Source: Candidatus Latescibacterota bacterium (GTDB lineage Bacteria > Latescibacterota > UBA2968 > GCA-2709665). Taken from it: 64,000 nucleotides of DNA. The stretch covers positions 480,001 through 544,000 of the forward strand of contig OZ244937.1 of NCBI GenBank assembly GCA_965222075.1, given 5' to 3'. Shown piece after piece: positions 8,666-54,825 of the stretch (positions are counted from its first letter, which is position 1; every line of letters begins with the position of its first letter). The notes beneath the pieces were generated by a model. The model ran no database searches. It saw nothing but the letters and a program-made list of their open reading frames with translations, and was not told where the DNA came from. The translations under genes were made by a program, and so were the position numbers.

Positions 8666-8688
8666 CCCCCCCCCCCCCCCCCCCCCCC
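8666..8688. repeat. C23 homopolymer
   Basis: Directly visible run of 23 C. Confidence 0.9.
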
Positions 8689-8714
8689 AATTTTGAGGGA
8701 GAGTGTTAGGGAAC

Positions 8715-9054
8715 TAACAAAAGAGTTAACAGTCTGTCCGGTGAAGCTGTCAGCATCTCCGGACTCGCTGTGCATGATCGGAAAATGCCCACTCGCATTG
8801 CGGGTGGGTTTTATTTTGTCCATCGGAAATCCCTTTGGAAGTGGTGATGCGTAGAAGCCCATTTCTCTAAGTTTTGTCGTCGTATTCTGGTATGCGTTCG
8901 CACCTGCCTGTGCCGGGCACGGCAGACAGGTCGCTTTTTCAGCCTGAGGTTGCCAGTATTCAATTTTGTGAGCCCGTTTGGTCAACCGTCGGATAGACTC
9001 GTGGGTGGATAAGGCTGGGTCAAGCTGCGCCTCGACGACCCGCTTGACCTGGTG
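8715..9054 (-). mobile_element. Transposase C-terminal remnant (IS701-like)
   Basis: 'QVKRVVEAQLDP...KIEYWQ.QAEKA..(H)..LREMG' resembles IS701-family C-termini (recalled similarity, not searched). Carries a palindromic micro-insert. Confidence 0.45.
8903..8930. repeat. CCTG..CAGG micro-insert, 28 bp, at A^T
   Basis: CCTGCCTGTGCCGGGCACGGCAGACAGG. Confidence 0.8.
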
Positions 9055-9081
9055 CCTGTCTGCGTGCAACGTGCATGCAGG
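9055..9081. repeat. Degenerate CCTG..CAGG micro-insert, 27 bp, at the junction of the IS remnant and the LRR gene leader
   Basis: CCTGTCTGCGTGCAACGTGCATGCAGG, similar to the reverse complement of 16795-16821. Confidence 0.65.
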
Positions 9082-9111
9082 CCCCTCCACATAATAGAAA
9101 GGAAGGAAACC

Positions 9112-12100: not shown

Positions 12101-12558
12101 TTTGGAACAATCAGTTGAGTGGTACGATTCCCGTGGCATTGGGCAACCTGACCAATCTCACTGAACTGCATCTTAACGAAAATCAGTTGAGTGGTGCGCT
12201 TCCTGTCAAATTGGCCAACCTGTCCAACCTGAAGATGCTGTCTCTTGGCGGCAATCAGTTGAGTGGTACGATTCCCGTGGAATTAGGCAACCTGGCCAAT
12301 CTCACGCATCTGTGGCTTCACAGCAATGCGTTGAGCGGTGCGCTTCCCGTGGAATTGGGCAACTTGACCAATCTCACTGAACTGCATCTTAACGACAATC
12401 AGTTGAGTGGTGCGCTACCTCAGAGCCTCACAAGGCTCACAAAGCTGGAGAAATTTCACTTTGGGGGCGAGGGGGGGCTATGTGCGCCGCTTGATTCGGC
12501 CTTTCAGACGTGGCTTCGGGGCATTGAAGAGACCGGCGGTCCGAATTGCTCAAGTTAG
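9112..12558 (+). CDS. Secreted LRR protein 1: cohesin-like domain, dockerin/EF-hand pair, two capped plant-type LRR blocks
   Basis: RBS AGGAAGGA and ATG 9112. DFDGDGMVGFTDF/DLDGDGSIGFSDF motifs. 24-aa LxxLxLxxNxLSGxIPxxLGNL repeats (about 18 and about 13), each block with N-cap REALVALYNATDGDNW and C-cap LCAPLD..GPNC. Confidence 0.9.
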   Translation: MRKLLLHLTCWFGSARVSIFAILSIALLIHPLSLSSQNSFSLSLDVDGTAGDQGGTSLNVSPEKVVSIQIFGSDLQGATGISARFEYGASQVVYEGFEGGDVLPSALVLTGHGTNPTFVTISMVSSGGPATVNTGLVGTIRFRTSATLSGTTIRLVGAELGRGGRVESVTLNVSVALQSGPSPDFDGDGMVGFTDFLQFADKFGSSQGDGKYEARFDLDGDGSIGFSDFLEFAAQFGKKVPSRLKADREALVALYNATDGDNWTDKTNWLTDSDLSTWFGVTVLNGRVTELDLGENNLTGEVPPQLGNLTSLDSLRLDRNQLSGAIPSELGNLYNLKVLNLSWNRLGGDIPVELANLYNLKVLNLDRLESGGSIPSFLGNMTNLETLSLRSNALSGPIPSFLGNLENLERLTLTRNALSGPIPSFLGNMTNLTFLWLGGNELSGPIPVELGNLENLESLSLGGNALSGPIPSFLGNMTNLRQLYLSSNQLSGGIPVELGNLGNLEWLNLRNNQLSGSIPSELGNLENLERLSLGDTQLSGSIPSELGNLENLESLGLENNQLSGSIPSELGNLENLEWLIFQNNQLSGSIPSELGNLENLESLGLDWNRLSGEIPVELGNLENLESLGLGNNQLSGGIPVELGNLENLESLGLFKNQLSGAIPVELGNLSNLTSLILWENQLSGMIPVELGNLENLEWLNLADNQLSGMIPQSLTRLTKLGGFHFGGEGGLCAPLDAAFQTWLRGIADANGPNCLNPATREALVALYNATDGDNWTNKTNWLTDNDISTWHGVGVSNGWVTHLDMRDNNLTGELPVELGNLTNLETLHLPENALSGEIPVELGNLANLTHLWLYNNALSGSIPVELGGLDSLKVLELGANQLSGEIPEELGKLSNLEALRFGSNALSGEIPEELGNLTNLTNLGLDNNELSGEIPVELANLSNLTVLLLWNNQLSGAIPVELSNLTNLKDLNLGGNQLSGAIPVELSNLTNLTHLSFWNNQLSGTIPVALGNLTNLTELHLNENQLSGALPVKLANLSNLKMLSLGGNQLSGTIPVELGNLANLTHLWLHSNALSGALPVELGNLTNLTELHLNDNQLSGALPQSLTRLTKLEKFHFGGEGGLCAPLDSAFQTWLRGIEETGGPNCSS

Positions 12559-12668
12559 GCGTCGCTCGGGCGGATTACAAACCGTTCGCCTGACTCCGCG
12601 TGTTAAGTTCGTGTAAAAAAAATTGGGGTTCTTTGGCATACACCCGTGTAGAACAGGAGGAAAGCGTT

Positions 12669-13478
12669 ATGAAACGTGTGGTGGTATTCGCTCTGTGTCT
12701 GGGCCTCGCCGCGGCAGGGTCGGTCACTGCCGGTGAGATGACCAGCGGGCTGGAGATGAACGGCGGTCCGAATGCGTTTGCAGGTTTGAAGCTGGAACGG
12801 GTGCAGGATGGGACGCAGAAAGAGGGCGTGTTAAAGCTTCAGGTGACGATGGACCAGATCAAGGACCTGAAGGGCTACGGATTTGTGCTCCAGTTCGATC
12901 CGGCCAGGTACGAGTTTGTAGGGGTCAAAGAGGCTGTCGATAACCTTCTGAGTACGGGCAGCGGGCAGCCGACTCTGTTTCTCTCCGCCAGCCAATCGCC
13001 CGGCCAGGTGGCGGTGGGGGCGATGAAGGTGGACGGTCAGGCCGTAACCGGTGAAGGCAGGCTGCTGGAGGTGACGTTTAAGACCGTAGACGTGCCCCAG
13101 CCCACCGATTTTCAGATTGCCGAGGGGGTGCTGATCGATGTGGAGGGGAACATCGATCCGATCCACCACCTTGAGGTTGGCAACCTGAAGCCGCTGCCGG
13201 ACAGCTTTGGTCTGGATCAGAATATGCCCAATCCGTTCAACCCTTCCACGACCATCGGATATCAGTTGCCAGAGTCGGGGCAGGTCCATCTGGGGGTTTA
13301 CAACCTGCTGGGGCAGGAGGTTCGGACCATGGTCAGTGGAACCCTGGATGCGGGGTATTACACGCTGGATTGGGACGGGAGGGACAATTTCGGGCGTCAG
13401 CTGGCCAGTGGGATCTACCTGTACCGGATGCGGGTCAACGATTTTAGTGAGACGCGCCGGATGATGCTTTTAAAGTAA
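12669..13478 (+). CDS. Secreted cohesin-like plus FlgD-Ig (C-terminal sorting-like) domain protein
   Basis: RBS AGGAGG, signal peptide, 'LKGYGFVLQFDP' cohesin-like motif, 'QNMPNPFNPSTTIGY..WDGRD..LASGIYLYR'. Confidence 0.8.
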   Translation: MKRVVVFALCLGLAAAGSVTAGEMTSGLEMNGGPNAFAGLKLERVQDGTQKEGVLKLQVTMDQIKDLKGYGFVLQFDPARYEFVGVKEAVDNLLSTGSGQPTLFLSASQSPGQVAVGAMKVDGQAVTGEGRLLEVTFKTVDVPQPTDFQIAEGVLIDVEGNIDPIHHLEVGNLKPLPDSFGLDQNMPNPFNPSTTIGYQLPESGQVHLGVYNLLGQEVRTMVSGTLDAGYYTLDWDGRDNFGRQLASGIYLYRMRVNDFSETRRMMLLK

Positions 13479-13522
13479 AGGATCGGGGCACAGTACACGA
13501 CAAAACCTAATCCTTAAACAAG

Positions 13523-13827
13523 TGTCAACAACGATTTGGTTTTCGACAGATCCACCGGTTTAGAATTGTCATCGTGGTAGGGGCGCCCCTTGTGGGCGCC
13601 CGCCCCCCCTTGCTGGCTATCTTGAAGGAGTTGGAGAAGGGAGACTCGTAACGATGTCCAGGTCCGACAAACAGCCCTGCCTGCCGAGTCAGGGGCATCG
13701 ATGCCGGGTAATGCCGACGCCTGCCTGCGCCGAGTCCTGCTCGGCAGGCAGGGAGGAAAGGGGCCTGACTTCGGACACGCTTGGGAAGGGGACAAAGGTC
13801 TGGAGAGTGGCGCAAGCCTATAACCTC
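13523..13827 (+). repeat. Composite dispersed repeat, copy 1 (GTAG-REP plus micro-insert at 13720-13752)
   Basis: 13523-13593 matches 18339-18409; 13563-13685 resembles 18813-18940; 13649-13827 resembles 27524-27706. Confidence 0.85.
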
Positions 13828-13884
13828 CAAAGAAAGACGAGGCGATCCCGGAACAAGCTTGGCCTTCAGGTGAAGCCGAAGTGG

Positions 13885-14103
13885 CGTGTGCCTGTAGGCG
13901 ACGGCCGTCGGAACGCCGGATGCGGGAAATCCGCACGTCCGGTTCGTGGCCGGTGAGCGTGTCGAACCGACGAGCGGGACGTGGAAACGGGGCATGGAGA
14001 GGCTATTGAGGCACCGTTAGACGAAAGGGTGTGACGGTGAGCGTGTCGAACCGCGGAAACAGATAGGCCGCTCCTAAACCACCGCGCCACATCTCGACTC
14101 TAC
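13885..14103 (+). mobile_element. Group II intron 3' remnant (domains V-VI), interrupted by two 23-bp inserts
   Basis: CGCCGGATGCGGGAAATCCGCACGTCCGGTTC (DV) ... CCGCGCCACATCTCGACTCTAC (DVI end). No RT ORF present. Confidence 0.85.
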
Positions 14104-14200
14104 CGGCTTTACCTCGTGGGGTCCACGGGGCGGCGCTCCCTGGACGTTTCTATTTGGAAAGGCCCGTTTTGTGCCAACATTCGGAAAAGGAGAGAAGCTG

Positions 14201-14311
14201 CTAGTGGTCAGTTTCAGAAGTCCACATGAAGGAAAAATGTCGCAGAATCACACGGAATTACTCAGAAGGAATCCACAGAAACTCATACGAACTTGAGAAA
14301 TCGACCACTAG
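14201..14311. mobile_element. MITE (111 bp) with CTAG ends
   Basis: Inverted repeats CTAGTGGTCAGTTTCAGAAGT / ACTTGAGAAATCGACCACTAG. Confidence 0.75.
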
Positions 14312-14351
14312 GGATAACGGAATCCTAAGTCACTTACGATGGAGGTTTGCG

Positions 14352-16376
14352 ATGAATTTTAACGACAATCCAATTGAAGAGAGCCAGCAAGATAGTATCG
14401 ACAGAACTGCTCTCGCTGAAAAATTCGCTCAGCAAGTACTGGATCTTGATGCCTCCAATGGGATCGTAGTGGGCGTCCTTGGTCCTTGGGGTTCCGGAAA
14501 AACATCCTTCGTCAATCTAGCACGGAGAGAGTTCAATGAGAGGGAAATTCCGATACTCGAATTTAACCCTTGGATGTTTAGCAATACGGGGCAACTCGTT
14601 AAATCGTTCTTTGCCGAGTTCGTGGCGCAACTAGAGCTAAGAAATGATGACGACCTTGCCAAAATAGGTGCAGCTATATTGAATTACGCTCCGTTATTCC
14701 TTAGCCTGTTGCCCGGGGGCCAAATTGTCGGCACCTTTGCGAGATTAGCAGGTGATACTATTGGCCGTCGGAACAGAAGTGTTGAGCATGAGCGGAGCGA
14801 GATCGAAGAAGCGCTTTCTGGACTCGACAAACCGATTATTGTGTTACTTGATGACGTTGACCGATTGACCACATCGGAGATCCGAGATGTATTTAAGCTG
14901 GTTCGCTTGATTGCCAACTTCCCGAACGTCATTTACATCGTAGTTTTTGACCGAGACCGCGTCGAGCGTGCACTGGATGAGCGTGGTATAAAGGGTCGGG
15001 ACTACATCGAGAAAATCCTTCAATTTTCTGCAGATTTGCCGGTAGTGTCCCGTCACGTACTCTGCCAGCAGATTCGCTCAGCAATTGTTAGTGCTCTCAA
15101 CGAAGTTGATGATCCCGGCCCGTTTGATGAGCAGGTCTGGTCTGGTGTCTTGCAGCGGGTCGTCGCTCCACTAATCCAAAACATGCGAGACGTTAACCGA
15201 TATTCAGTTTCTATTCACACTGCTATAAGATCTCTTGAAGGGCGAATTCAGCTAGCCGACCTTTTCGCACTCGAAGCCGTTCGCATGTTTCTTCCGGATG
15301 TTTTCAAGCTCCTACACGGCTCTATCGATGACCTAACGAGCCCTAGAGATCCCAACAATGGACACGGTGCTTCCACGCCGCCGGCACACCCTACGGTAAT
15401 CGTCAAGGCCTTAATTAAAGCCGCCGGCGATCAGAAACAACATGTCGTTGAAAGTATGATTGAACTACTCTTTCCGGCTGCAGCACACAATGTCGGTGGC
15501 AGTGCCTTCCAAGGGGAAGGGACTAAAGAGTGGCTTAAGGAGCGTCGCATCGCGTATCCGGACATCTTGAAGCTCTATCTGGAGCGTCGCGTTAGCGAAC
15601 ACTTGCAAGCGTTCATTGACTCAGAACGGGCATGGGAAAGAATGCATGAACTCAATGACTTCGAGGAGAATTTGAACACTCTCAATCCGGCAAATATACA
15701 TAACGTGATTGCATTGCTAGAGTTGTTCGAAGACCAATTCACCTCAAATCATGTTATACCAGGTATTACCGTTCTACTCAATCTTTTTTCGGCTCCCGAA
15801 TGCCGCCGGGAAAAATACGACTTGTCTCTCAGCGATACGGTAAATCGCATCACAGGTCGGTTGTTAAGATCTCTGGATGACCATCAGAAACTCAACGAAG
15901 CAATACACGACACGTTAGGCAATTTAAGGTCATTGTCGTCCAAATGGAAACTCATCACCATCGTCGGACACCGAGAGAAGACGGGGCAAAAGCTGGTATC
16001 GGAGGATAAAGCGTTGGAACACGAGAAAGATTGGCGTGTTGAAGTCCGAAGAGCCCGAGTCGACAATCTTTTGAAGGAGTATGACCTCTTCCGAATTCTC
16101 CTTGATACGAAGCACGACGCTGCTCCTTCAGAAGACCCGCTAGCAATCGACGACTCACCGGAGATGACGTTTGCCCTACTTTATACTGCTCAGAGAGAGA
16201 CCAAAAATCAAGCAATTCAGAGTTCCGCCTGGAAAAATCTAATCTTTCTGTACAACAATGAGGACAAGTTGATAACGCAGGTTCAAAATCTGCGCAGTGC
16301 AGATCCAGAGAGATTCTGTAACTATATCAGACTTGCGAACGAATACCTCTCACCAGGGGGTCGAGGTGTTCCATAG
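14352..16376 (+). CDS. KAP-family P-loop NTPase
   Basis: RBS GGAGG. GPWGSGKTS Walker A, EFNPWMF, LLDDVDRL Walker B, YIEKILQ. Lower GC than the flanks. Confidence 0.9.
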   Translation: MNFNDNPIEESQQDSIDRTALAEKFAQQVLDLDASNGIVVGVLGPWGSGKTSFVNLARREFNEREIPILEFNPWMFSNTGQLVKSFFAEFVAQLELRNDDDLAKIGAAILNYAPLFLSLLPGGQIVGTFARLAGDTIGRRNRSVEHERSEIEEALSGLDKPIIVLLDDVDRLTTSEIRDVFKLVRLIANFPNVIYIVVFDRDRVERALDERGIKGRDYIEKILQFSADLPVVSRHVLCQQIRSAIVSALNEVDDPGPFDEQVWSGVLQRVVAPLIQNMRDVNRYSVSIHTAIRSLEGRIQLADLFALEAVRMFLPDVFKLLHGSIDDLTSPRDPNNGHGASTPPAHPTVIVKALIKAAGDQKQHVVESMIELLFPAAAHNVGGSAFQGEGTKEWLKERRIAYPDILKLYLERRVSEHLQAFIDSERAWERMHELNDFEENLNTLNPANIHNVIALLELFEDQFTSNHVIPGITVLLNLFSAPECRREKYDLSLSDTVNRITGRLLRSLDDHQKLNEAIHDTLGNLRSLSSKWKLITIVGHREKTGQKLVSEDKALEHEKDWRVEVRRARVDNLLKEYDLFRILLDTKHDAAPSEDPLAIDDSPEMTFALLYTAQRETKNQAIQSSAWKNLIFLYNNEDKLITQVQNLRSADPERFCNYIRLANEYLSPGGRGVP

Positions 16377-16794
16377 ACGAATCGTTCGGCGTGCCTGCGA
16401 TAGACGTGGTTGAGCACCTGTTGTCTGGCGGTTTGAGTCCGCCGTGTCACGCCGTCGTGCGCGGTGTCGTGCGTCCTGAGAACCGGAGAAGTGCCCCGGG
16501 TATGATGTCTTCAGCTGTGGCATAATCGCCAAGAGTTTGCTGTACCTGCTTTCGATGCCGCGCCAGAAATCGTAATGTATCTACTTAGTGGCTACTAAAC
16601 ATTCGGTGTGTTGTTTTTATTGGAGTTGGGATGTTTAAGTCGAAACAAATGGCGGAACGTTCGCGCCTGTTTGGAGAGACGGTCGTGTTTGATACGCACT
16701 AAAGTGGTCGCATTGGCAGCCACAATAACCATGCCAATTTGAATGGATGCGCCTTGATGTCCACGATATTTAATCCGTGTTGCACCTCGACAGA

Positions 16795-16821
16795 CCTGCC
16801 TGTGCGTTGCACGCAGACAGG
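16795..16821. repeat. Micro-insert, 27 bp, at A^T, in frame
   Basis: Removal gives TTLICRG. Confidence 0.85.
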
Positions 16822-17147
16822 TAAGGGTTGTGATCAGGTTTTCAACGAAGGGACGACTATAGGCACAGGCGTGAGCAATTTTGATCTGAGTGGCGTTTTG
16901 TTTTTCTTCCAAGCCGGGTATGTGAAGCGCCTCCTTGATCATTTCAGGCGTGGGCACTTTCGGGATCGGTGCGATTGAACTGGGAATGCCCAGGGTTGCG
17001 ATCCCTCGAAAGTGGAGTTGATTTCTCAGATTGGGATCATCCAATCCCAAGTCGCCAGCCAAAGATCGAATGAGCGGTTTTCGTCTTTGATATGCAAAGT
17101 CGAGCAAGTCGATGGCCCCATCAACAGTCTGCACAAGAGGCAAGGCA

Positions 17148-17174
17148 CCTGCTTGCGCGCTGCGCGCAGGCAAG
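17148..17174. repeat. Micro-insert, 27 bp, at A^T, in frame (decayed ends)
   Basis: Removal gives DASYALPLV. Confidence 0.8.
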
Positions 17175-17319
17175 TAAGAGGCATCATGCTGGATTGCCCA
17201 CAGGCAGATGATAGCCAAAGATGAAGCCGGTTCCCATCTCAGCGATGATACCTGGTTTTTTCCCGAATTGGCAGGGACAGTTGCTCTTGCCTTTCTTGAT
17301 CGGGGCGATCGTCGGGTCA

Positions 17320-17349
17320 CCTGTCTGCGTGCGGTGACGCACAGGCAGG
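17320..17349. repeat. Micro-insert, 30 bp, at A^T, in frame
   Basis: Removal gives VNAYDPTIAP. Confidence 0.9.
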
Positions 17350-17753
17350 TAGGCATTGACGATTTTACAGTGATCCAATTTTTCCCGTTGACCAACTGTC
17401 GTGATTGTTTTTCAATGTGTCGATGGGCCTGGAGAGCCTCGTCGAGTTTGTGCATCAACCGCTCTTGCTGCACCTGGTCTATGGCGATGTCTTTTTGCAG
17501 GTGCATTTGGGCGCAAAGGGCAAGCGGCGTAACCTGACATCCAATAGAAAGCAGCCGTTTTTCAGTCTCTCGAACCCATTTGAGATAGACTTTGCCCTTG
17601 CCCCGGCATTGTCTGCCAAAGGTGCGCATCTGCGCCTTGAGATCCGTTTGCAGGGTCTCTGCTTCGGCTTGGATGCGGCTGCCCCCTGCGGTGAAAGGGG
17701 CTATTTGTTGGATGATTTGGAGGATTTTTTTCGCTTTATAAAGCGTCGTGGCA

Positions 17754-17786
17754 CCTGTCTGCCGTGCCGGGCACGGCACAGGCAGG
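17754..17786. repeat. Micro-insert, 33 bp, at A^T, in frame
   Basis: Removal gives RVTDATTLYK. Confidence 0.9.
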
Positions 17787-17885
17787 TCCGTAACCCGTTG
17801 GGAGCCTTGCTCAGCGGGAAACGTATCGACCACCAGGTGCTGGGGAGAAACCAGCCCTTCCTCCATGGCCTCTGCTGCCTGGATT

Positions 17886-18267
17886 GGAGTTACCCCGGTT
17901 TAGTGGACGGTTTTAGGCTTGGGTATCAAGCCCATGATTGATGGTTGTTTTCGTAGGTTGTGGGTGAGTGGTACCCCAACGCTGAATGCCTGCGATGTGG
18001 ATTGTACCACCCCTCGATGTATTCGAAGAGGGCCTGTTGCGCGTCCTGGAATGTGCGGAAGCAGTGGCGGTCGAGGAGTTCGCATTCTACTGTGGCGAAG
18101 AAACGCTCGCACATCGCGTTGTCAAAGCAGTCTCCGACGGATCCTGTGGAGGGACGGACACCGGCCTTCTTGCAGCGCAGACCAAAGGCGAGTAAGGTAA
18201 ACTGCGATTCCTGGTCGGAGTGATGGATCACGTCCTTGGGACGACGCTGCCACAAGGCCATGTCCAC
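17886..18267 (-). mobile_element. IS3-family remnant (orfB C-terminus plus terminal IR)
   Basis: 'IHHSDQ.SQF..G.CFDNAMCE.FF..YIEGWYNPHRRHSALGY.SP' and IR-like GGAGTTACCCCGGTTTAGTGGAC. Confidence 0.85.
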
Positions 18268-18338
18268 TCTCGGACTCGCTCTGCTGGCCTGGAAGGGCGA
18301 TTCAGGGAGGGTACCGACACGTTCCTCGCGCCCGTGAC

Positions 18339-18959
18339 TGTCAACAACGATTTGGTTTTCGACAGATCCACCGATTTAGAATTGTCATCGTGGTAGGGGC
18401 GCCCCTTGTAGGCACCCGACCCTCGGAGGCGCGATGGTCACCGTTACAGAAATCAGGGCAACCACAAGGGTTGCCTGCCTGCGTAGCGGTCTGCCTGCCT
18501 GCAGCGCGGTGCGCCGCGCAGGCAGGCGCTGCAGGCAGGCCCCTACGTTGGGTGACGCGGTCGGCGCGTGCAACGGACCGGGTTTGGGGACAATTCGATG
18601 CGATGGAATACCGATACCACATACCCAATCCCATCCGCATCCACCACCCGCAGGGGCGGTTCGCGAACCGCCCCTACAAAGACCGCCATGACATCGATAT
18701 GGAATTTCTGACCGATTCCCAACCATCGAAATGGACGGATTCGTTGTCATGTCCAACCGATTCCCATCCGTGGTTATGAACACATTCGTTGCAATGCCCA
18801 ACCCCATCCACGGAATTGTCATCGTGGTAGGGGCGCCCCTTGTGGGTGCCCGCCCCCCCTTGCTGGCTATCTTGAAGGGGTTGGAGAAGGGAGGCCGATA
18901 ACGATGCTCAGGTCCGACAAACATCCCCGCCTGCCTGCGCTGGCGCGCCAGCAGGCAGG
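18339..18959. repeat. REP and composite-repeat cluster, with a doubly nested micro-insert (18474-18539) and a 30-bp insert (18930-18959)
   Basis: GTAGGGGCGCCCCTTGT at 18394 and 18828; GCAGGGGCGGTTCGCGAACCGCCCCTAC at 18650; REP 18456-18546 split by nested inserts. Confidence 0.85.
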
Positions 18960-20409
18960 GATGTCCATTCTGGTGATTGATGACGATCCGGAAATCCGGT
19001 CTTCCGTGGGGATGTTTCTGCAGGCGCGGGGGCATATGGTCTACGAGGCCGCGGACGGGTTTGTGGGTATGAAGGTGCTTCGGAGGGAGGCTGTTGACAT
19101 CGTGATCACGGATGTGAAGATGCCGGGGATGGATGGGTTCGAGGTTTTAAGGGAGGTCAAGCGTCTGTCTCCTGATACGGAGGTGATTGTGGTTACGGCC
19201 TTCAGTGAGGTCGAGCATGCGTTTCGGGCGATGCGGGATGGGGCATTTGATTTTTTCACGAAGCCGTTCAGGGTGGAGGAGCTGAACGCCTCTTTGCAGC
19301 GGACCATGCGTTACCGGGCGCTTCATCAGGAGAAGAACAGGATGCAGGCGCGTCTGGATCGCATCAAGGCGGAGTCCAGGCAGCGCTTTGGTCTGGCGGC
19401 GATTGTGGGGGAGAGTGGGGCCATTTGCGCGGTGCGGGAGCAGGTCCGGCAGGTGTGCCAGTCCGGGGATACGACGGTGCTCATCTGCGGCGAGACGGGT
19501 ACGGGCAAGGAGCTGGTGGCGCGGGCCATTCACACCGAAAGCGCCCGTGCGGGCGGACCGTTTGTGCCTGTGAATTGCTCGGCCATCCCTGAGGCGCTGT
19601 TTGAAAGCGAGTTTTACGGCCACGAGCGGGGTGCGTTCACGGATGCCCGGCAGGCACGAAAGGGCCACTTTGAGCAGGCGGACGGGGGCACGCTGTTTTT
19701 GGACGAGATCGGCGATATGGACCCGGGGATGCAGAGCAAGCTGCTGCGCACTTTAGAGGAGAAGCGGTTCCGTCCGGTGGGCGGGTCCAAAGAGGTTGCG
19801 GTGGATGTGCGGGTGGTCTCGGCCACGAACCGGGACCTGTCCGGGATGGTCCGTGAGGGTGTTTTTCGGGAGGATCTGTTCTACCGGCTGAATGTGTTCG
19901 CCATCCGGGTTCCACTGCTGCGAGAGCGTTTGGAGGATATTCTCCCACTGGCGCAGTATTTTTTAAGTCGGTATGCGGAGGAGATGCGCAAACCGATCCG
20001 GGGGTTTGCCCCGGAGGCCGTGGCGCTGCTAAAGGCCTACCCTTTTCCTGGCAATGTTCGAGAGTTGAACAATACGATTGAACGGGCTGCGATTCTGTGC
20101 GGGAACGGTCAGGTGAGGGCAGATCACCTGCAGGATCTGACTGTTGGGGCCTGCCTGCGCCGAGATCTGCCCGGCAGGCAGGCGGGTGGACCGCCTGCCT
20201 CCTGTGAGGCGGAGGGCTTGCCTGCTGCGCTGGATGTGGCCGGGGTGGAGAGCCTGAATCTGGACGCGCTTGAACGACAGGCGGTGGGGGAGGCCATCCG
20301 CAGGTGCGATGGAAATCAGGTTCAGGCTGCCGGGCTGCTTGGTATTTCGCGCAATACCCTCCGTCGCCGGATCAGGGCATACGATCTGGTGGAGGGATCA
20401 GCATTCTGA
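18904..20409 (+). CDS. sigma54-dependent response regulator (NtrC/AtoC family)
   Basis: REC domain (VIDDD, TDVKMP, TKPF), AAA+ GETGTGKE, GAFTDA, FLDEIGDM, Fis-type HTH. Start is 18904 (RBS GGAGG) or 18961. Confidence 0.93.
   Translation: MLRSDKHPRLPALARQQAGMSILVIDDDPEIRSSVGMFLQARGHMVYEAADGFVGMKVLRREAVDIVITDVKMPGMDGFEVLREVKRLSPDTEVIVVTAFSEVEHAFRAMRDGAFDFFTKPFRVEELNASLQRTMRYRALHQEKNRMQARLDRIKAESRQRFGLAAIVGESGAICAVREQVRQVCQSGDTTVLICGETGTGKELVARAIHTESARAGGPFVPVNCSAIPEALFESEFYGHERGAFTDARQARKGHFEQADGGTLFLDEIGDMDPGMQSKLLRTLEEKRFRPVGGSKEVAVDVRVVSATNRDLSGMVREGVFREDLFYRLNVFAIRVPLLRERLEDILPLAQYFLSRYAEEMRKPIRGFAPEAVALLKAYPFPGNVRELNNTIERAAILCGNGQVRADHLQDLTVGACLRRDLPGRQAGGPPASCEAEGLPAALDVAGVESLNLDALERQAVGEAIRRCDGNQVQAAGLLGISRNTLRRRIRAYDLVEGSAF
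20150..20182. repeat. Micro-insert, 33 bp, at G^C, in frame in the AAA-HTH linker
   Basis: CCTGCCTGCGCCGAGATCTGCCCGGCAGGCAGG adds 11 aa. Confidence 0.85.
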
Positions 20410-20423
20410 ACCCGGGGTTGCTG

Positions 20424-20442
20424 CCTGCCTGTTGCAGGCAGG
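20424..20442. repeat. Minimal micro-insert, 19 bp, intergenic
   Basis: CCTGCCTGTTGCAGGCAGG. Confidence 0.75.
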
Positions 20443-20480
20443 TATGAAAGATCGGGTCCGGATCAAGGAGTTGGGAGGAT

Positions 20481-23400
20481 ATGGCAATGAAATTCACGAG
20501 AAGGTCTGTTGGTGGATTGTTGGTGGGGATGGGGATTGCTTTCGCAGGGCTTGCTTTTGTGTATGCCCAGACCGCAGCGGATGCGGATTTTGACGGGGAT
20601 GGCAAGGTTGGGTTCAGCGATTTTGTGTCGTTTGCAGGCAAATTCGGGACCAGTCGAGGCGATGGGAGGTACGAGGCGAAGTACGATCTGGACGGCGACG
20701 GGCAGGTGGGTTTCACGGATTTTGTGGCGTTCGCCGGGTTTTTTGGTCAGAGCGCCGTTCCCAACGAGGCGCCGATATTGGAGCGGATCGGCGACCAGGG
20801 CGTACCAAAAGGCGTTACACTGATCATCGAACTGGCCGCTTCCGATCCGGACGGGGATGATCTGGACTACCGGGTGAGCGGTCAACCGGAGGGCTCGTCG
20901 CTGTCCGGGTCCACCTTCCGCTGGACGCCCACGAGCGGTGAGGACGACACCCACCGCATCACCTTCACGGTAAGAGACAGCCGGGGCGGGAGGGCTTCGG
21001 AGACGATCACCGTGAGGGTGGTGGAATTTCGGTTCAGGCTGGTCGAGCACCGGATTACGACCGAGGAGCCCAGCTTTGTCAATATTCTCTTCCAGGTAAT
21101 CGACTCCGACAACTGGGGGGTGACGTCGCTGACCACCGAACACTTTGAAGTGCGCGAGGACGATCAGGTGGTATCCCCTACCGAGTCGGCCATGCGCGTC
21201 CAAAAGCGGGAGGCCATTCCGCATCGTTTCAAGTTGAAGACCGTTCTGATGCTCGACACCAGCACGAGCGTAAAGGACCACCTGGAGCAGATTAAACAGG
21301 CGGCGGTCATTTTGGTGGAAAACATGACCGAGAACCAGGAGATCGCCCTGTACGAATTCTCTGAAAAGCCGGAGCGCTTGCAGGATTTCACCAACGATGC
21401 AGCAGCCCTGACCAAAGCGATTCGGGAAATTCGTTTGGGCTTTCCCACCACCAACCTGTACGGAAGCATTATCACCGGAACCCGGCGGTGGGCGGATATC
21501 TTCACCACAACCGAAGTCCAGCAGGGGTTTCTGGTTATCCTGACCGACGGAAGCGACACGCAGGGGTCTTATACGCTATCGGAGGCGCTTGCGGCGCGGG
21601 GAAACAAGAATGTCTACACCATCGGGCTGGGGAACGAGATTGACCCGGACGTCCTGCAGGAGCTGGGCAACGCCGGGTTTTTCCAGATTACGGACGTGAG
21701 CAAACTGGCTGACCAGCTGGCCGAGAGGTTTATCGAGATTCAAAAAAGGATCGTCTCGTTCGCCGACAGTTTCTACTGGCTGAGATACCTCAGCCCCAAG
21801 CGTGGGGACAGAGAGCATTCGCTGGCGGTGATTGTGAAGGGGAATGAGGTCAATTACTCGATCGAAGGGAGTTTCAATAGTAGGGATTTCTATTCGGTGC
21901 GTCAGGGCGTTTTCGTCAACACCTCGCCTTCCAATGCGGAGGGAATTGAAGAACTAAGGATGGCCAAGGGCGATTCGATTCGCCTCCAGGCGGTGACATT
22001 TCCGGAGCTCAAGTCCCCACAGTATATCTGGGAGACGAGCGACCGCGATATCGTCGCGATCAAGCCGGATACGCTTGATGCATCGGTGGCGTGGACGATT
22101 GCGGTTGGGGACAGCGGTCAGACGGCGACTTTGACGGTGTTTGACCGGGCGAATGAGTTGGACGGGCAGGTGCAGGTGCATGTAGGAGTAATCGGAACAG
22201 GCTTCTTCGCCCTGCCGGGAGGCGCATTGATGGAGATGGTGCGGATACCGCCGGGGACGTTTCGGATGGGATCGCCTCCATCAGAGGAGGGTCGTTCTTC
22301 GGCTGAGGAGCCGGTGCATGAAGTGACGATCAGGCAGGGATTTTACCTGGGGAAATATGAGGTCACACAGGCGCAGTGGGAGGCGGTGATGGAGAGCTAC
22401 CCGTCAAAGTCCAAGGTATGCGGAGACTGTCCCGCGGAAAACTTATTTCGGCACGAAGCGCAGGCGTTTATTCGGAAGCTCAACGAGATAGAGGGAGAGA
22501 ACCGGTATCGTTTGCCGAGCGAGGCGGAGTGGGAGTATGCGGCGCGTGCGGGCACGACGACGAGGTATAGCTGGGGGGATGAGATCGGCACCAACCGGGC
22601 CAATTGCCGTCGTTGCGGCAGTCAGTGGGACGAAAGGGGGATAGCGCCAGTGGGATCGTTCCCTGCCAATGCCTGGGGCCTGTACGACATGCACGGAAAC
22701 GTGCGGGAGTACGTGCAGGACTGCTGGGTAAACGACTACCGGAGGGCGCCTGCTGACGGCTCGGCGGTGGAGGGCGACTGCTCTAGACGCGTGGCGCGTG
22801 GCGGTTCGTGGGACGACTTCCCCGACGCCCTCCGCTCGGCGAGCCGATCTGGGAAGGACGACAGTTACTATTCCACATATCGGATCTTCTACAATGGCTA
22901 CGGTTTTCGAGTTGCCCGGACGGTCCCGGAGGCGGACCGCGAGGCGCTGGTGGCGCTTTACAATGCGACCGATGGGGACAACTGGACGGATAAGACCAAT
23001 TGGTTGACGGACAACGACCTTTCAACCTGGTTTGGCGTCACGGTATCCAATGGTCGGGTCACGTCCCTGGACCTGAGAGAAAACAACCTGACTGGCGAGA
23101 TCCCACCCCAATTGGGCAGCCTGACCAGCCTTGACAGCCTGCGCCTCGACCACAATGCACTTTCCGGCCCGATTCCCCCAGAATTGGGGAACTTGACCAA
23201 AATGAAGAGGCTGATTCTTTTCAGCAACCAGTTGAGTGGCACGGTTCCACCCGAATTAGCCAAACTATCCAACCTTGAGCGGCTGATTCTTTTCAGCAAC
23301 CAGTTGAGTGGCACGGTTCCACCCGAATTAGCCAAACTATCCAACCTGAAGTGGCTGTATCTTTCCACCAATCAGTTGAGTGGTTCGATTCCTGTGGAAT

Positions 23401-24755
23401 TGGGCAACCTGTCCAACCTTGAGCGGCTGATTCTTTCCGCCAATCAGTTGAGTGGTGAGATACCCGTGGAATTGGGCAACCTGTCCAACCTGAAGTGGCT
23501 GTATCTTTCCACCAATCAGTTGAGTGGTTCGATTCCTGTGGAATTGGGCAACCTGGAAAACCTTGAGCGGCTGCATCTTTCCAGCAACCAGTTGAGTGGC
23601 ACGGTTCCACCCGAATTAGCCAACCTATCCAACCTGAAGTGGCTAATTCTTTCCGCCAATCAGTTGAGTGGTGAGATACCCGTGGAATTGGGCAATCTAT
23701 CCAACCTGACGCATCTGTATCTTTACGGCAATGGGTTGAGTGGTTCGATTCCTGTGGAATTGGGCAACCTGGAAAACCTTGAGCGGCTGCATCTTTCCAG
23801 CAACCAGTTGAGTGGCACGGTTCCACTCGAATTAGCCAACCTATCCAACCTGAAGTGGCTGATTCTTTCCGCCAATCAGTTGAGTGGTTCGATTCCTGTG
23901 GAATTGGGCAACCTGTCCAACCTTGAGCGGCTGATTCTTTCCGCCAATCAGTTGAGTGGTGAGATACCCGTGGAATTGGGCAATCTATCCAACCTGACGC
24001 ATCTGTATCTTTACGGCAATGGGTTGAGTGGTTCGATTCCTGTGGAATTGGGCAACCTGCCCAACCTGACGCATCTGTATCTTTACGGCAATGGGTTGAG
24101 TGGTTCGATTCCTGTGGAATTGGGCAACCTGGAAAACCTTGAGCGGCTGCATCTTTCCAGCAACCAGTTGAGTGGCACGGTTCCACCCGAATTAGCCAAC
24201 CTATCCAACCTGAAGTGGCTGATTCTTTACGGCAATGGGTTGAGTGGTTCGATTCCTGTGGAATTGGGCAACCTGCCCAACCTGACGCATCTGTATCTTT
24301 CCAGCAACCAGTTGAGTGGCACGGTTCCACCCGAATTAGCCAACCTATCCAACCTTCAGTGGCTGTGGCTTAACAACAATGGGTTGAGCGGTGGGATTCC
24401 TGTGGAATTGGGCAACCTGGAAAACCTTGAGCGGCTGCATCTTTCCAGCAACCAGTTGAGTGGCACGGTTCCACCCGAATTAGCCAACCTATCCAACCTT
24501 CAGTGGCTGTGGCTTAACAACAATGGGTTGAGCGGTGGGATTCCTGTGGAATTGGGTAACCTGGAAAACCTTGAGCGGCTGTATCTCCACGATAACGCAT
24601 CCTTGACGGGTGCACTTCCTCAGAGCCTGACAAAGCTGACGAAGCTGGTGGAGTTTTTCTTTCATGCCACGGGGCTATGTGCGCCGCTTGATTCGGCCTT
24701 TCAGACGTGGCTTTGGGGCATTGAAGAGACCCGCGGTCCGAATTGCTCGAGTTAG
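20481..24755 (+). CDS. Secreted LRR protein 2: dockerin/EF-hand, Ig-like, VWA, FGE-sulfatase-like and about 22 LRRs
   Basis: DFDGDGKVGFSDF; ASDPDGD; MLDTSTS/LTDG (VWA); RLPSEAEWEYAARAG..GLYDMHGNV..RGGSW (FGE-like); 72-bp LRR units. Confidence 0.9.
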   Translation: MAMKFTRRSVGGLLVGMGIAFAGLAFVYAQTAADADFDGDGKVGFSDFVSFAGKFGTSRGDGRYEAKYDLDGDGQVGFTDFVAFAGFFGQSAVPNEAPILERIGDQGVPKGVTLIIELAASDPDGDDLDYRVSGQPEGSSLSGSTFRWTPTSGEDDTHRITFTVRDSRGGRASETITVRVVEFRFRLVEHRITTEEPSFVNILFQVIDSDNWGVTSLTTEHFEVREDDQVVSPTESAMRVQKREAIPHRFKLKTVLMLDTSTSVKDHLEQIKQAAVILVENMTENQEIALYEFSEKPERLQDFTNDAAALTKAIREIRLGFPTTNLYGSIITGTRRWADIFTTTEVQQGFLVILTDGSDTQGSYTLSEALAARGNKNVYTIGLGNEIDPDVLQELGNAGFFQITDVSKLADQLAERFIEIQKRIVSFADSFYWLRYLSPKRGDREHSLAVIVKGNEVNYSIEGSFNSRDFYSVRQGVFVNTSPSNAEGIEELRMAKGDSIRLQAVTFPELKSPQYIWETSDRDIVAIKPDTLDASVAWTIAVGDSGQTATLTVFDRANELDGQVQVHVGVIGTGFFALPGGALMEMVRIPPGTFRMGSPPSEEGRSSAEEPVHEVTIRQGFYLGKYEVTQAQWEAVMESYPSKSKVCGDCPAENLFRHEAQAFIRKLNEIEGENRYRLPSEAEWEYAARAGTTTRYSWGDEIGTNRANCRRCGSQWDERGIAPVGSFPANAWGLYDMHGNVREYVQDCWVNDYRRAPADGSAVEGDCSRRVARGGSWDDFPDALRSASRSGKDDSYYSTYRIFYNGYGFRVARTVPEADREALVALYNATDGDNWTDKTNWLTDNDLSTWFGVTVSNGRVTSLDLRENNLTGEIPPQLGSLTSLDSLRLDHNALSGPIPPELGNLTKMKRLILFSNQLSGTVPPELAKLSNLERLILFSNQLSGTVPPELAKLSNLKWLYLSTNQLSGSIPVELGNLSNLERLILSANQLSGEIPVELGNLSNLKWLYLSTNQLSGSIPVELGNLENLERLHLSSNQLSGTVPPELANLSNLKWLILSANQLSGEIPVELGNLSNLTHLYLYGNGLSGSIPVELGNLENLERLHLSSNQLSGTVPLELANLSNLKWLILSANQLSGSIPVELGNLSNLERLILSANQLSGEIPVELGNLSNLTHLYLYGNGLSGSIPVELGNLPNLTHLYLYGNGLSGSIPVELGNLENLERLHLSSNQLSGTVPPELANLSNLKWLILYGNGLSGSIPVELGNLPNLTHLYLSSNQLSGTVPPELANLSNLQWLWLNNNGLSGGIPVELGNLENLERLHLSSNQLSGTVPPELANLSNLQWLWLNNNGLSGGIPVELGNLENLERLYLHDNASLTGALPQSLTKLTKLVEFFFHATGLCAPLDSAFQTWLWGIEETRGPNCSS

Positions 24756-24796
24756 GCGTCGCTCGGGCGGATTACAAACCGTTAGCCTGACTCCGC

Positions 24797-24970
24797 GTGT
24801 CAAACGGTCGGGTTCAATTTCTATCTTTCTCAGCAGGGAACTGCATCAACCTCTCCAACACGACCTTTTACGTCTATACCGCTTACACCTCAAAATGGCA
24901 GCGAAAAGACGGTGCTTCATGGGTGGATATTCCAGGCACGGAACGCGCGGGTTTGTGTTCCTACCTGGCG
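24797..24970 (+). pseudogene. Orphan gene fragment downstream of LRR gene 2
   Basis: Protein-like 'GRVQFLSFSAGNCINLSNTT..SKWQRKDGASWVDIPGTER.GLCSY' with no RBS or clear start. Confidence 0.35.
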
Positions 24971-26703
24971 CAACCATCGAAACGATTGCCAAACACCGCA
25001 CGACAACGCTAACCAGACGAACTTGGAAGCAAAGAGTCAAAGATGAGAAACTTGCCATTTATGGGCCAACACACGCAATCGCCAATTCGTCAGCACGGCC
25101 TACCGCTTATGGGGCGAAGCCCCTGGGTCGTTTTCGCGGCCGTGCCGTTTCGCGATGGCGATGGGAGGTGACCGATGAATACTAATCCCGAAAAGGACTC
25201 CAAATGGGAACAAATCGTCACCTACCTGAAGCATCTCGCCCTTTGTCTCGCTGCCCGGGGCCTGCTATTGCTCGCGATATCGGTGACTGTTCTGATACCT
25301 CCCCTAATCCCAACCAGCATCGTCTTGGCCTTGGCATGGGCATTGGACTGGGCTTGGGCTTGGGCCTTAGCTTGGGCTTGGGCCTTGACATTGGCAGGGG
25401 CCTTGGCCTTAGCTTGGGCTTGGGCCTTGACATTGGCAGGGGCCTTGGCATGGGTCTGTGACTGGACATGGGCATGGACATGGATTCCAGAACTATTAGA
25501 ATCCCTCTGCGTATTCATCAGAGATAAACGGATAATCGAGAATGCAAACATCATTACGATTATCACCATAGGCCTGATTTCGCTTCTGCTTCTAAGAAAA
25601 GACACCAGGCAATCTCTATTGAACATCATCAAGAAGACCTTCGAAGTCTTTCGGGGTAGATGGCTGCCAAGAATGGATAGCGGAGAAAGCCTGTTGAAGA
25701 CTTGGCGGTGCTACTTCGCAAAGGTCTGGCCGTCCATGAAAGAGACGTTCACTGAGTCCCTAAAGCTGGCCGCCTACCCGGTGCATTTCGCCCTTCGTCT
25801 CGCCGCCCGGTTCCTGCTGCTGCTCGCGATACTGGTGACCGTTCTAATGACGCCCCTCCTTTACCCTGTGTATCTTGTCCTTTACCCTGTGTATCTTGTC
25901 ATTCGTCTCGATTTCCTTCGTCTCGCTCCCTTTGTCGCTTGGTTCCTGCTGTTGCTCACGATACTGGCGGCTATTCTAATATCATCCCTAATCCTAATTA
26001 GCATCGTCTCGGACTTGGGATGGAATATAGGGCTATTAGAATCTCTCCGGGCGTTCATCAGAGAAGACCTGAAAAGTGAGAATGTAAACATAATTACGAT
26101 TATCGCCTTGCTCGCTAGCATAGGCCTGTTTTCGTTTCTGCTTCAAAAATCTGTAGAAGACATCAGGAAATCTCTATCGAACATCAGAGCGAAAATCGTC
26201 GAAGTCTTTCGGGACAAATGGTGGCCAAAGATAGATATTAGGGAAAGCCTGAGGGTAACTTGGCGGTGCTACGTCGCAAGGGTCGGGTCGTACATGAAAT
26301 ATACGTTCACCCAGTCCCGAAGGCTGGCCTTCGCCGCGTTGATCTTGTGCATTATCTTGGTTTGCGGTTACATTTCGGTAAAAGAATTCAACAAATGGCA
26401 AGGGGAGGTGATGTCCAAGCTGAAGGCTATCGAGGGTAAGGTGAATGGGAGCGTCATCGTCTTGAGCGATTTTTCGCCATCTTATCCATTGGAAAAGGGC
26501 ACCCAGTTTTCGTTGTTCTATCTGTTCCAAGGCGATTTGGACAGCAAGCAAGGCATCTGTCCGGCAGACAGCAATTTGGTGGAATGGTTGACGTCGTTCA
26601 AAATGGCGATTTCAAAATGCTCCAATGAGGGCGGACGTGTGAGGCTGAAGGTACGGGCGTTTGCGAGCACCGCGCCGGTGACTAAGAAAGGTATTCTCGA
26701 CAC

Positions 26704-26873
26704 TAAGTAGTCAAGCAGAAGTAATTGTGAACTCTCTCACTGGATTACAGGAGTAGAATTCCCTACGAAAAAATCGCCTTAACTCTTTGTAAATATTGTG
26801 CTATAGATGTAATAATCTTCAGCATAGGGCCAGTAATATTCGTTTTTTACAAAAACTATTGCATCACTACTTA
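26704..26873. mobile_element. MITE A in a TA target
   Basis: IRs TAAGTAGTCAAGCAGAAGT / ACTATTGCATCACTACTTA; AT-rich. Confidence 0.7.
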
Positions 26874-27000
26874 TCAGTAGTCTGTTGGCTCAAGAAAATC
26901 CTGCTCACAACACCCTACCAAAGCTTCGCAAATAGGGCTAAATTGGTGGTTGAAGGCATAGAAAATCACACCAAAAGCCGAAATCAACAAACCACAGTTA
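26872..27000. mobile_element. MITE B in a TA target
   Basis: IRs TATCAGTAGTCTGTTGG / TCAACAAACCACAGTTA. Confidence 0.55.
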
Positions 27001-27523
27001 TGAAGTCGGATACGTTCAACTATAAGATCGCCAATGAGCGCGCCGAGGCAATCATCTACTTCCTGACGTTGGCCGACACCATACAATACAACCCGAAGAG
27101 ATGCAAGGCCGCCCTTAACGATAGCCTTATATGGCGGGGATATCCGGAGCCCGACAGCACATGGGAAGGGCAGGGCTTCACCGTGACCTACAATCCATGG
27201 GAAAGCTATGCGAAGATGACGGAGGCCAAACTGGTGAAAGACGGTTCACTGGATAACCGACGACGCGACCTTGAGTTCCTCAACCGCACGGTGGAGATCA
27301 TCATTGAGGACGGCGGCTGCCTGACTAAGCCAGTGGACAACGCCGGGAATTCAGATTAAACCACACAGGGCGAAGGAGTATGACAGTAGTGCGGGAGGGA
27401 GCGCGGAACAGGGCAAAAGTCGAGTGCCAACGAAGAGGTGGCACATCGTGCCTTGTGCGCGTGTGGGGTTGCACGCGGCGATAAAAGGGTTTAGCGAAGG
27501 ATTATCACCCCGGGGGAGACGCA

Positions 27524-27706
27524 TAACGATGCTTAGGTCCGACAGACAGCCCCGCCTACCTGCCGAGTCAGGCGCATCGATGCCGGGTAATGCCGACGCC
27601 TGCCTGCGCCGAGTCCTGCGCGGCAGGCAGGGAGGAAAGGGGCCTGACTTCGGACACGCTTGGGAAGGGGACAAAGGTCTGGAGAGTGGCGCAAGCCTAT
27701 CACCTC
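27524..27706 (+). repeat. Composite dispersed repeat, copy 3 (33-bp micro-insert at 27599-27631)
   Basis: Near-identical to 13649-13827. Confidence 0.85.
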
Positions 27707-27724
27707 AAAGTGTTCACAGTATTG

Positions 27725-36064: not shown

Positions 36065-36075
36065 TCGGACCACAG

Positions 36076-36255: not shown

Positions 36256-36273
36256 ACCACGCTGCGGCTGCCC

Positions 36274-54805: not shown

Positions 54806-54825
54806 TTTTTTTACGGATTTTTAAT

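Follow-up and report, generated by a model that had tools for sequence, protein, structure and literature searches.

We found that a 91-base structure in the genome of a Candidatus Latescibacterota bacterium is made of three palindromic layers set one inside another: a repetitive extragenic palindrome (REP) of the GTAG type is split by a 33-base hairpin element, which is itself split by a second 33-base hairpin element of the same family. The structure occupies positions 18456-18546, in a gene-free part of the stretch that we analyzed, hereafter the window, i.e., the 64,000 nucleotides from position 480,001 to 544,000 of contig OZ244937.1 (GenBank assembly GCA_965222075.1; a single contig of 5.36 Mb makes up the genome, which has a G+C content of 59.3%). 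Positions below are those of the window unless given as genome positions. We propose that the hairpin elements form a mobile family whose members are moved as single-stranded DNA by an enzyme acting in trans, and we assign this account as a whole, i.e., the three-layer nest, the mobile family and the proposed movement, a probability of roughly two in three. The part that was directly observed, namely the nest, its composite history, the later insertion of exactly 33 bases, and the mobility and targets of the family, we hold with high confidence; the mechanism is tentative, at somewhat worse than even odds.

The nested arrangement had been described in an earlier reading of the window made from its letters alone (the sequence-only reading), and it was borne out when we read the sequence and sliced it by coordinates. 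The inner unit is a 33-base near-palindrome, letter-for-letter identical to the most abundant variant of the family, which has 24 copies in the genome. Once it is removed, the two flanking pieces (20 + 13 bases) join into an outer unit that is likewise 33 bases long, as claimed, and that is a near-palindrome with the inner unit's 9-base arms, one base different from a copy at genome positions 2822639-2822671. Peeling this layer away leaves a 25-base palindromic GTAG-type REP with the 3' end CCCCTAC. As the sequence-only reading had stated, this remainder is one base off the REP at 6846-6870 and one base off the reverse complement of 57688-57712; moreover, it is the commonest variant of its REP type, identical to 8 of the 20 intact genomic copies (with up to 4 mismatches allowed). 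The host layer is thus classed as a REP as a GTAG-tagged, multi-copy palindrome clustered with other REPs, the cluster of four lying within 18393-18851. The outer element breaks it within the 3' stem arm, between G and C, and the inner unit also sits between G and C, in the context GGTCTG^CGCTGC, where the loop of the outer unit meets its 3' stem arm. The sequence-only reading had proposed counting the interrupted copies of this REP type, and the count came to two, both interrupted at the same G^C, against 20 uninterrupted.

The order of events at this locus can be read from a duplication. The segment bearing the nest (18431-18648) has one further genomic copy, of ~185 bp and 96-98% identical, at genome positions 2822530-2822714 on the minus strand. 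In this paralogue the same outer unit, one base different and itself uninterrupted, breaks the REP at the same position; therefore, the inner unit was inserted later, as a recent addition of exactly 33 bases. The REP and the outer unit, by contrast, are found in both segment copies, so the outer unit was no independent event here and arrived with the REP in the duplicated segment. The sequence-only reading had taken the nested loci as internal empty-site controls, and this holds for the inner unit, whose empty site is the paralogue, but not for the outer unit, for which only other copies of the REP had been compared. In the same-genus genome G001, which is 93-96% identical in the parts that align, there is no orthologue of the nest, the stretch from ~8256 to 27719 being missing there.

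A wider comparison showed that the composite of REP and element is older than this locus and was dispersed as a unit in another genus. In G021, a genome of another genus in the same family, the REP plus outer unit occurs at five loci with unrelated flanks (a count to be read as five or more), while intact REPs of the host type number four there, an undercount, as both of the pattern searches behind it demanded extra bases. Two of these loci (L137 and L138) carry the composite without an inner unit, and in three (L011, L012 and L013) the homologous CTG^CGC site is filled by inner units that differ from one another, with 30, 33 and 27 bases. In G018 and G020 (L015 and L139) the same REP position is filled by a different family member that is itself interrupted, and in the genome studied here several two-layer composites recur at several loci. 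Both the REP position and the point where loop and stem of the outer unit meet have thus been targeted repeatedly, and composites also move about as blocks.

Could the entire 91-base structure then be a single inherited composite that spreads as a block, e.g., as a REP variant, with no insertion at this locus at all? The REP and outer unit are indeed duplicated together within the ~185-bp segment and dispersed together at five or more G021 loci, and the recurrent two-layer composites of the genome point the same way. For the inner unit, however, this explanation is contradicted by the only other copy of the segment, which lacks it, as well as by the unit's identity to a free-standing variant of 24 copies and by the G021 host site, which holds three different inner units or none. 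The evidence on the inner unit therefore limits the block explanation to the REP plus outer unit, and as an account of the whole structure we regard it as improbable.

We also considered whether the nest might be an artefact of mis-joined repeats, given that the inner unit is a high-copy sequence and that the short contigs in public data stop at its borders. In Logan contigs from four runs of three studies, the unique flanks and both outer junctions were covered: contigs run from the left flank through the REP and the outer unit to 18494, and from 18526 through the outer unit and the REP end to the right flank, thereby linking both unique flanks to the inner unit's first and last base. No contig in the four runs bridges the inner unit, as would be expected of a high-copy 33-base repeat in 31-mer graphs, and the lack of a read-level bridge across the whole nest counts against our account. 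In three of the four runs, one contig each contains a joint that skips exactly 33 bases (18492 to 18526), which fits the paralogue. Together with the exact lengths, the perfect REP left after peeling and the recurrence of the three-layer architecture in three other genomes, the contigs from three studies leave misassembly barely credible.

To place the two units in a family, we relied on a shared fold. Its members begin with CCTG and end with CAGG, their 9-base termini are conserved, and they comprise a 7-base outer stem (CCTGYCT / AGGCAGG), a one-sided bulge of 2-3 bases, mostly GC, and a variable centre with an inner stem of 4-7 pairs and a loop of 3-6 bases. A structural census that peels the innermost copies first and then rescans found 268 copies in the genome (231, 32, 4 and 1 in successive rounds), a lower bound, as the census misses, e.g., the member at 20150-20182, which has an inner-stem mismatch. 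The reversed genome, used as a control, gave 14 hits, none nested and with a flat spread of lengths. The genomic copies measure 27 (94 copies), 30 (27), 33 (107), 36 (15) or 42 (1) bases, the remaining 24 not being multiples of three. In the window, the exact-arm pattern matched six times, as compared to none in 100 shuffles, and, by both controls, a chance origin of the family is excluded. The inner stem is itself maintained: among 98 distinct 33-mers from other genomes, pairing was kept by double-sided changes in 51 cells, versus 25.1 in shuffles, with 0 of 500 shuffles reaching 51 (the strand was picked by pairing, which somewhat favours structure). Rfam models at gathering score over the window gave only a lysine riboswitch and two tRNAs (36074-36258 and 54731-54909), with no match to the family, and a search at E up to 10 over 18350-18700 returned nothing relevant. 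The features of the nest and the family members of the window are collected in Table 1.

Table 1. Layers of the nest, neighbouring REPs and hairpin-family members in the window.
Feature	Positions	Strand	Basis
REP 5' part, 18 bases (first stem arm, loop, most of second arm)	18456-18473	+	Joined to 18540-18546, equals 8 intact copies
Outer element, left 20 bases	18474-18493	+	Second peeling round of the census recovers 18474-18539 as a 33-base member
Inner 33-base element, most abundant variant	18494-18526	+	Missing from paralogous segment, genome 2822530-2822714
Outer element, right 13 bases	18527-18539	+	Slicing by coordinates; census
REP 3' end, CCCCTAC (reverse complement of the GTAG tag)	18540-18546	+	Sequence reading
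Duplicated segment with REP and outer element in both copies, inner element only here	18431-18648	+	Paralogue at genome 2822530-2822714
Neighbouring GTAG REP, related variant, same REP cluster	18393-18417	-	Sequence reading; similar stretch at genome 2821358-2821393
Second GTAG REP type, near-perfect palindrome, CCCCTAC end	18650-18677	+	Pairing with the first REP type recurs at 6846-6930
Further GTAG REP of the cluster	18827-18851	-	Reverse complement among the listed REP copies
30-base member immediately upstream of where a sigma-54 response regulator gene probably starts	18930-18959	+	Exact-arm pattern
33-base member in the linker of the sigma-54 response regulator, in frame, 11 residues	20150-20182	+	Orthologue comparison
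30-base member inside a gene	50127-50156	+	Missing from the orthologous G001 site
Intergenic 33-base member; 27599-27631 holds a near-identical copy whose flanks are the same	13720-13752	+	Exact-arm pattern; census
Four members (27, 27, 30 and 33 bases) within and near a degraded transposase gene	16795-16821, 17148-17174, 17320-17349, 17754-17786		Census

Comparisons with empty sites established that family members are gained or lost between paralogues and between species of one genus, without target duplication. The nest lies within a larger paralogy (17885-22727 versus genome 2831234-2826761, 88-94% identical), across which several members differ. A 27-base member is found only in the paralogue, between C and T (corresponding to window position ~18013), and four more members differ in presence between the two regions. 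The 30-base member upstream of the sigma-54 regulator gene is missing from that site in the paralogue, where the same 30-mer is present at another site. In G001, the in-gene member at 50127-50156 corresponds to an exact 30-base gap in an alignment that is 93% identical. The added sequence was thus exactly 33 bases in the paralogue comparison of the nest and exactly 30 in the orthologue. The mobility without target duplication that had been proposed from the letters alone is confirmed by these comparisons, yet the nest alone cannot carry the claim of exact ends. There, the ends are ambiguous by 1-2 bases, because the G^C flanks repeat the units' terminal C and G: the outer unit tolerates a shift of -1 to +2 bases and the inner unit one of -1 to +1, two letters fit on either side of the 33-base joint in the public contigs, and the insertions may have duplicated 1-2 target bases at the nest itself. 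What carries the claim of exact ends is the 27-base insert at ~18013, which allows no shift and shows no duplication. The family has inverted termini, as expected of a MITE (miniature transposable element with inverted repeats) of a DDE transposon, but the missing duplication at this unambiguous site sets it apart from such elements.

We next tabulated the flanking bases of 173 clean, non-redundant sites whose lengths are multiples of three. The insertion point was A^T at 48, G^C at 47, G^T at 17, A^C at 14 and another pair at 47, i.e., an element usually has a purine on its left and a pyrimidine on its right (G^C or A^T). The flanking pair was complementary at 96 of the 173 sites, as compared to 65.5 expected under independence. 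Further out, C occupied position -4 of the left flank at 93 sites and G position +4 of the right flank at 86.

Hairpins themselves are a favoured target, as the sequence-only reading had suggested from the nest. While the family makes up 0.153% of the genome, 37 of its 268 copies are split by another copy, a ~90-fold excess (the control had none nested); the deepest nest, at genome positions 319697-319807, has four layers. One 27-base subfamily has 13 distinct sites, and at 9 of them it follows CCTGYCTG, a position in the bulge of other members. We then folded the 60 bases around 201 fully peeled insertion points and around matched purine^pyrimidine control sites. The insertion points folded more stably (-8.2 versus -6.6 kcal/mol, p = 1e-7), and those between genes did so too (-8.2 versus -6.0 kcal/mol). 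A qualification applies to the nesting excess, part of which may stem from composites copied as units: nests with the same insertion point could partly be such copies, not independent hits, and this weighs against reading every nest as a separate insertion.

Most copies have a length that is a multiple of three (3n), namely 244 of 268. This enrichment is found between genes (127 of 144 copies) as well as within them (112 of 119) and at gene edges (5 of 5), although the split is approximate, as genes were called by a home-made procedure that scores stop-to-stop frames by codon usage and covers 87% of the genome. To go by the control, the census should also contain ~14 false hits of arbitrary length. 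Counting distinct sequences, 3n lengths account for 37 of 52 found only between genes, 37 of 44 found only in genes, and all 26 found in both. Exact-arm copies from five distant genomes were also mostly 3n, 55 of 57 having a length of 30, 33, 36 or 39 bases. The sequence-only reading had held that the 3n length is at least partly intrinsic, and had proposed looking for it among the intergenic copies alone; it is enriched there, so the claim stands as a description, whereas an intrinsic mechanical cause is without support. The lengths arise from differing combinations of stem and loop (4+3, 5+4, 6+5, 7+6 and 7+3), and a length-measuring mechanism is therefore unlikely. Instead, the 3n lengths and stop-free frames are best read as the outcome of selection on element lineages that also land in genes: ~45% of copies lie within genes, where only 3n, stop-free inserts would survive, thereby selecting such lineages.

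The arms of the element, as read from the sequence, are free of stops in each of the six frames, and all three frames are used in the 51 confident in-gene copies. The frame read as ..LPA...QAG accounts for 28 of these, PAC...AGR for 15 and CLR...RQA for 8, a preference that fits selection against cysteine-rich readings. An example within the window is the member in the sigma-54 response regulator, which adds its residues to the linker before the DNA-binding domain; five orthologues (58-61% identity) are without these 11 residues.

The family extends well beyond this genome. Counted per strand, there are 109 copies here, 102, 100, 85 and 63 in four relatives, and 6 in the same-genus G001; overall, 18 of 41 relatives have copies, while in the sister family 17 of 19 genomes have none. 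An exact scan with one genome per species found at least 118 loci in what are, by record title, many phyla, about two thirds of the loci having the family's inner hairpin as judged by eye. Among the matches listed are Latescibacterota, Verrucomicrobiota, Planctomycetota, Methylomirabilota, Nitrospira, Thermodesulfobacteriota, Lentisphaerae, Kiritimatiellae, Bacteroidota, Chloroflexi, Acidobacteria, Omnitrophota, Elusimicrobia, Saccharibacteria and Parcubacteria. Five distant genomes held 3-19 exact-arm copies each, with none in the backward control, and 16 viral contigs had a match, ~11 of them typical members. As a separate observation, contig depths summed to thousands in each of the four public runs for the other two REP types of the cluster (18632-18679 and 18824-18871) and for the inner unit; these repeats are abundant in those communities, possibly across several organisms.

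How would such small units move? We rank as most likely a strand-cutting and rejoining enzyme that acts in trans on single-stranded DNA, with template switching and an RNA route as its rivals. In the mechanism that we favour, the elements would be non-autonomous and would move as folded single strands: the enzyme would recognise the conserved outer stem and bulge, excise the hairpin and paste it into transiently single-stranded DNA, with hairpin loops, bulges and breathing stems as favoured targets. One candidate mover would be a protein resembling the tyrosine transposases that accompany REPs (RAYTs). A RAYT-like gene is present at genome positions 3242104-3242868, with scores that fall short of both cut-offs, 55.6 bits (cut-off 80) for NCBIfam REP_Tyr_transpos and 18.1 bits (cut-off 23) for Pfam Y1_Tnp. 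Relatives of its product were found in 12 of the 13 related genomes with at least 6 element copies, versus 5 of the 28 with at most 2, and Y1-type matches were found in all five distant element-bearing genomes.

Several observations weigh against this mechanism or its candidate. Y1-type genes have a high base rate (6 of 14 control genomes), and the correlation between RAYT-like genes and copy number rests on kin genomes, which are not independent; the natural partner of the RAYT, moreover, is the GTAG REP, whose distribution is the same as that of the elements. G024 holds 8 copies and has no match to the RAYT-like protein. Physical linkage is scarce, with elements within ~800 bases of RAYT-like genes at only 2 of 20 loci. 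In this genome the RAYT-like gene has no element closer than 3 kb; that of G021 has one element 7 bases after it and is flanked by GTAG REPs of another type, and among 18 further loci one has an element within ~800 bases. Genes of the IS200 type do not track the elements either: G019, with 31 element copies, has 0 such genes, and G004 and G038, where the element count is zero, have 32 and 75. Finally, single-strand transposition of the IS200/IS605 type shows a strong replication-strand bias, yet the orientation of the elements relative to replication is near random (55:36, 19:27, 15:7 and 14:10 by subfamily). The tests of adjacency, correlation and orientation thus named no mover, and a genome-wide search for genes flanked by elements on both sides, in the manner of a REPtron, gave one case, an ordinary surface protein gene.

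Near-random orientation and the lack of a linked transposase are what would be expected if no dedicated enzyme were involved, i.e., if a replication fork stalled at a hairpin and its growing strand jumped to another copy, which it copied before returning via a microhomology of 1-2 bases at the purine/pyrimidine flanks. Such template switching would also place insertions in or beside hairpins without target duplication, and it fits the fact that copies of one variant share their flanking bases (e.g., ..GG^CGC.. at many family-A sites). Pure template switching, however, should spread any hairpin, whereas this family has the same 9-base termini and bulge, letter for letter, in many phyla, and a centre that varies, with changes that compensate each other. 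This conservation argues for recognition by a protein; in addition, the ends were exact in every comparison, with no variable junctions. We therefore consider template switching unlikely.

A second route without a transposase, reportedly proposed for the very small dispersed repeats of Nostoc, is that of an RNA copy followed by reverse transcription. Some subfamilies have many wobble pairs (G-T, i.e., G-U in RNA) in their stems on one strand, and elements lie in transcribed regions, including genes. The asymmetry of wobbles against mismatches is nonetheless confined to some subfamilies, there is no sense/antisense bias relative to host genes (13:25, 13:6 and 6:7), and a hairpin of 27-33 bases has no obvious priming site. 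No link to a reverse transcriptase was seen, although none was searched for. On balance, movement via RNA appears very unlikely.

A further possibility is that the elements depend on no transposase, whether encoded by them or linked to them, and are autonomous in this respect: a host enzyme of universal occurrence, able to cut and rejoin single-stranded DNA, would excise the folded hairpin and paste it into exposed single strands, type IA topoisomerase being one candidate. Type IA topoisomerase prefers a C four bases before its cut. This C is met at -4 in 93 of the 173 flanks, with G at +4 in 86, and since both strands of the element end in CAGG, they too place a C at -4 of the cut; the lack of a linked transposase is a further hint in this direction. 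We still rate this version as distinctly unlikely, and the trans-acting single-strand enzyme remains our preferred explanation.

Two other gene types were examined and set aside as movers or links. The single intact IS200-type transposase gene of the genome (genome positions 2071937-2072296, L135) has its own end hairpins, which are unrelated to the elements, and there is no correlation across the 41 genomes; it appears to be an insertion that divides a larger transposase-like frame in two. Small DUF559 (Vsr-like nuclease) genes form 3-4 near-identical cassettes, two of them in tandem (3759079-3760290 and 3774096-3774410, genome positions), which stand at the ends of similar membrane protein genes and are each bounded by the same pair of C-rich hairpins, different from the element; they look like a separate mobile cassette. 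Of note, G021 also contains a 1235-residue DUF1156/N6-adenine methyltransferase-like frame (L156:14978-18685) with a Y1 transposase-like stretch at residues 332-408, in defence-island-like surroundings with an SNF2 helicase and an AAA ATPase, and similar frames are found in G002, G003 and G020.

Other observations concern the surroundings of the family. The ~19.5 kb from ~8256 to 27719, which include the nest, contain degraded transposase genes, a KAP-type NTPase gene and the paralogous segment 17885-22727, and G001 contig C283 runs straight across from the preceding to the following sequence; the stretch looks like a strain-specific island, partly built by duplication. At ~42181-43594, 1.4 kb present here are missing from an otherwise 93-95% identical G001 contig and are probably an insertion sequence. 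Elsewhere in the genome, a non-coding repeat of ~115-130 bases (genome positions 391104-391270 and ~10 further loci) bears the most abundant 33-base variant at a fixed position. Its right-half copies seem to be without the 33-base unit or to have another, and may offer filled and empty pairs.

Among known systems, the closest kinds are the small dispersed repeats (SDRs) of cyanobacteria, intragenic REPs and Rickettsia palindromic elements. The SDRs of Nostoc punctiforme and its relatives, reportedly 21-27 bases long, are said to share a hairpin with compensatory changes, to nest in their own copies and to have been mobile recently; we know of no mover for them. The family described here is likewise very small, with a shared fold, compensatory changes and self-nesting. 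Set against the SDRs as they are generally described, it is longer (27-39 bases), GC-rich and has invariant 9-base termini; unlike them, its copies are almost always 3n and lie in genes in ~45% of cases, and it is found in many phyla, among the records listed with its arms, instead of in one cyanobacterial group. Full-text literature searches with two arm sequences returned only primers and unrelated papers, searches on in-frame palindromic or miniature elements and on Latescibacteria repeats found no description of the family, and none of 8 papers citing the one on the Nostoc small repeats concerns other phyla, by title or abstract.

The inserted units also resemble REPs, bacterial interspersed mosaic elements (BIMEs) and the REP doublets (REPINs) associated with RAYTs, which excerpts of Di Nocera et al. 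2013 (PMC3733652) and Bertels and Rainey 2011 (PMC3116915) present as high-copy imperfect palindromes of 20-40 bases; as short palindromes of 27-42 bases with 268 copies against 14 in the control, the units fit this description. REPs translated inside genes and REPs lying within palindromes are described in the former source, and some copies of our family are likewise translated in genes or placed within other palindromes. Unlike REPs, the inserted units bear no GTAG or CGTC tag, in which the host REP does end, and are flanked by purine^pyrimidine; unlike REPINs, they are not inverted doublets, do not lie beside RAYT-like genes (2 of 20 loci) and are genic in ~45% of cases.

Rickettsia palindromic elements (RPEs) appear in excerpts of two articles (PMC10969869, PMC3733652) as palindromic selfish repeats inserted in frame into unrelated genes. 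The family shares this in-frame insertion and translation as extra loops, but its copies measure 27-42 bases, whereas RPEs, to go by the same excerpts, measure about 100-150 bases and are restricted to Rickettsia and its relatives. To our knowledge, neither nesting in other hairpins nor a spread across phyla is known for RPEs. With IS200/IS605-type elements, as treated in parts of PMC3333891 and PMC6006769, the family would share hairpin recognition, exact ends and the lack of target duplication, and insertion into single-stranded DNA would explain the preference for hairpins. It differs in having no fixed target word of 4-5 bases (only a weak signal of C at -4 and a purine at -1) and no strand bias; moreover, a single hairpin is the whole element, instead of two subterminal hairpins, and the elements are not tracked by IS200-type genes.

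One genome thus holds the REP in three states, intact, interrupted once and interrupted by an insert that is itself interrupted, which amounts to a clean natural experiment: the nest shows a hairpin of 33 bases to be a mobile unit complete in itself, which arrives with exact ends and leaves no footprint. The family is among the smallest mobile-looking DNAs, 3n in length, stop-free and written into proteins as short loops, and its invariant termini are common to many bacterial phyla and some phage contigs. In metagenome-assembled genomes, inserts of this kind can lead to inflated or fragmented calls of genes and repeats, while offering ready markers of strain-level history. A mover, once found, would add a route of transposition that current annotation misses; and if a host enzyme should prove to do the work, one tiny sequence would parasitise many phyla and remodel their protein loops in steps of 9-13 residues.

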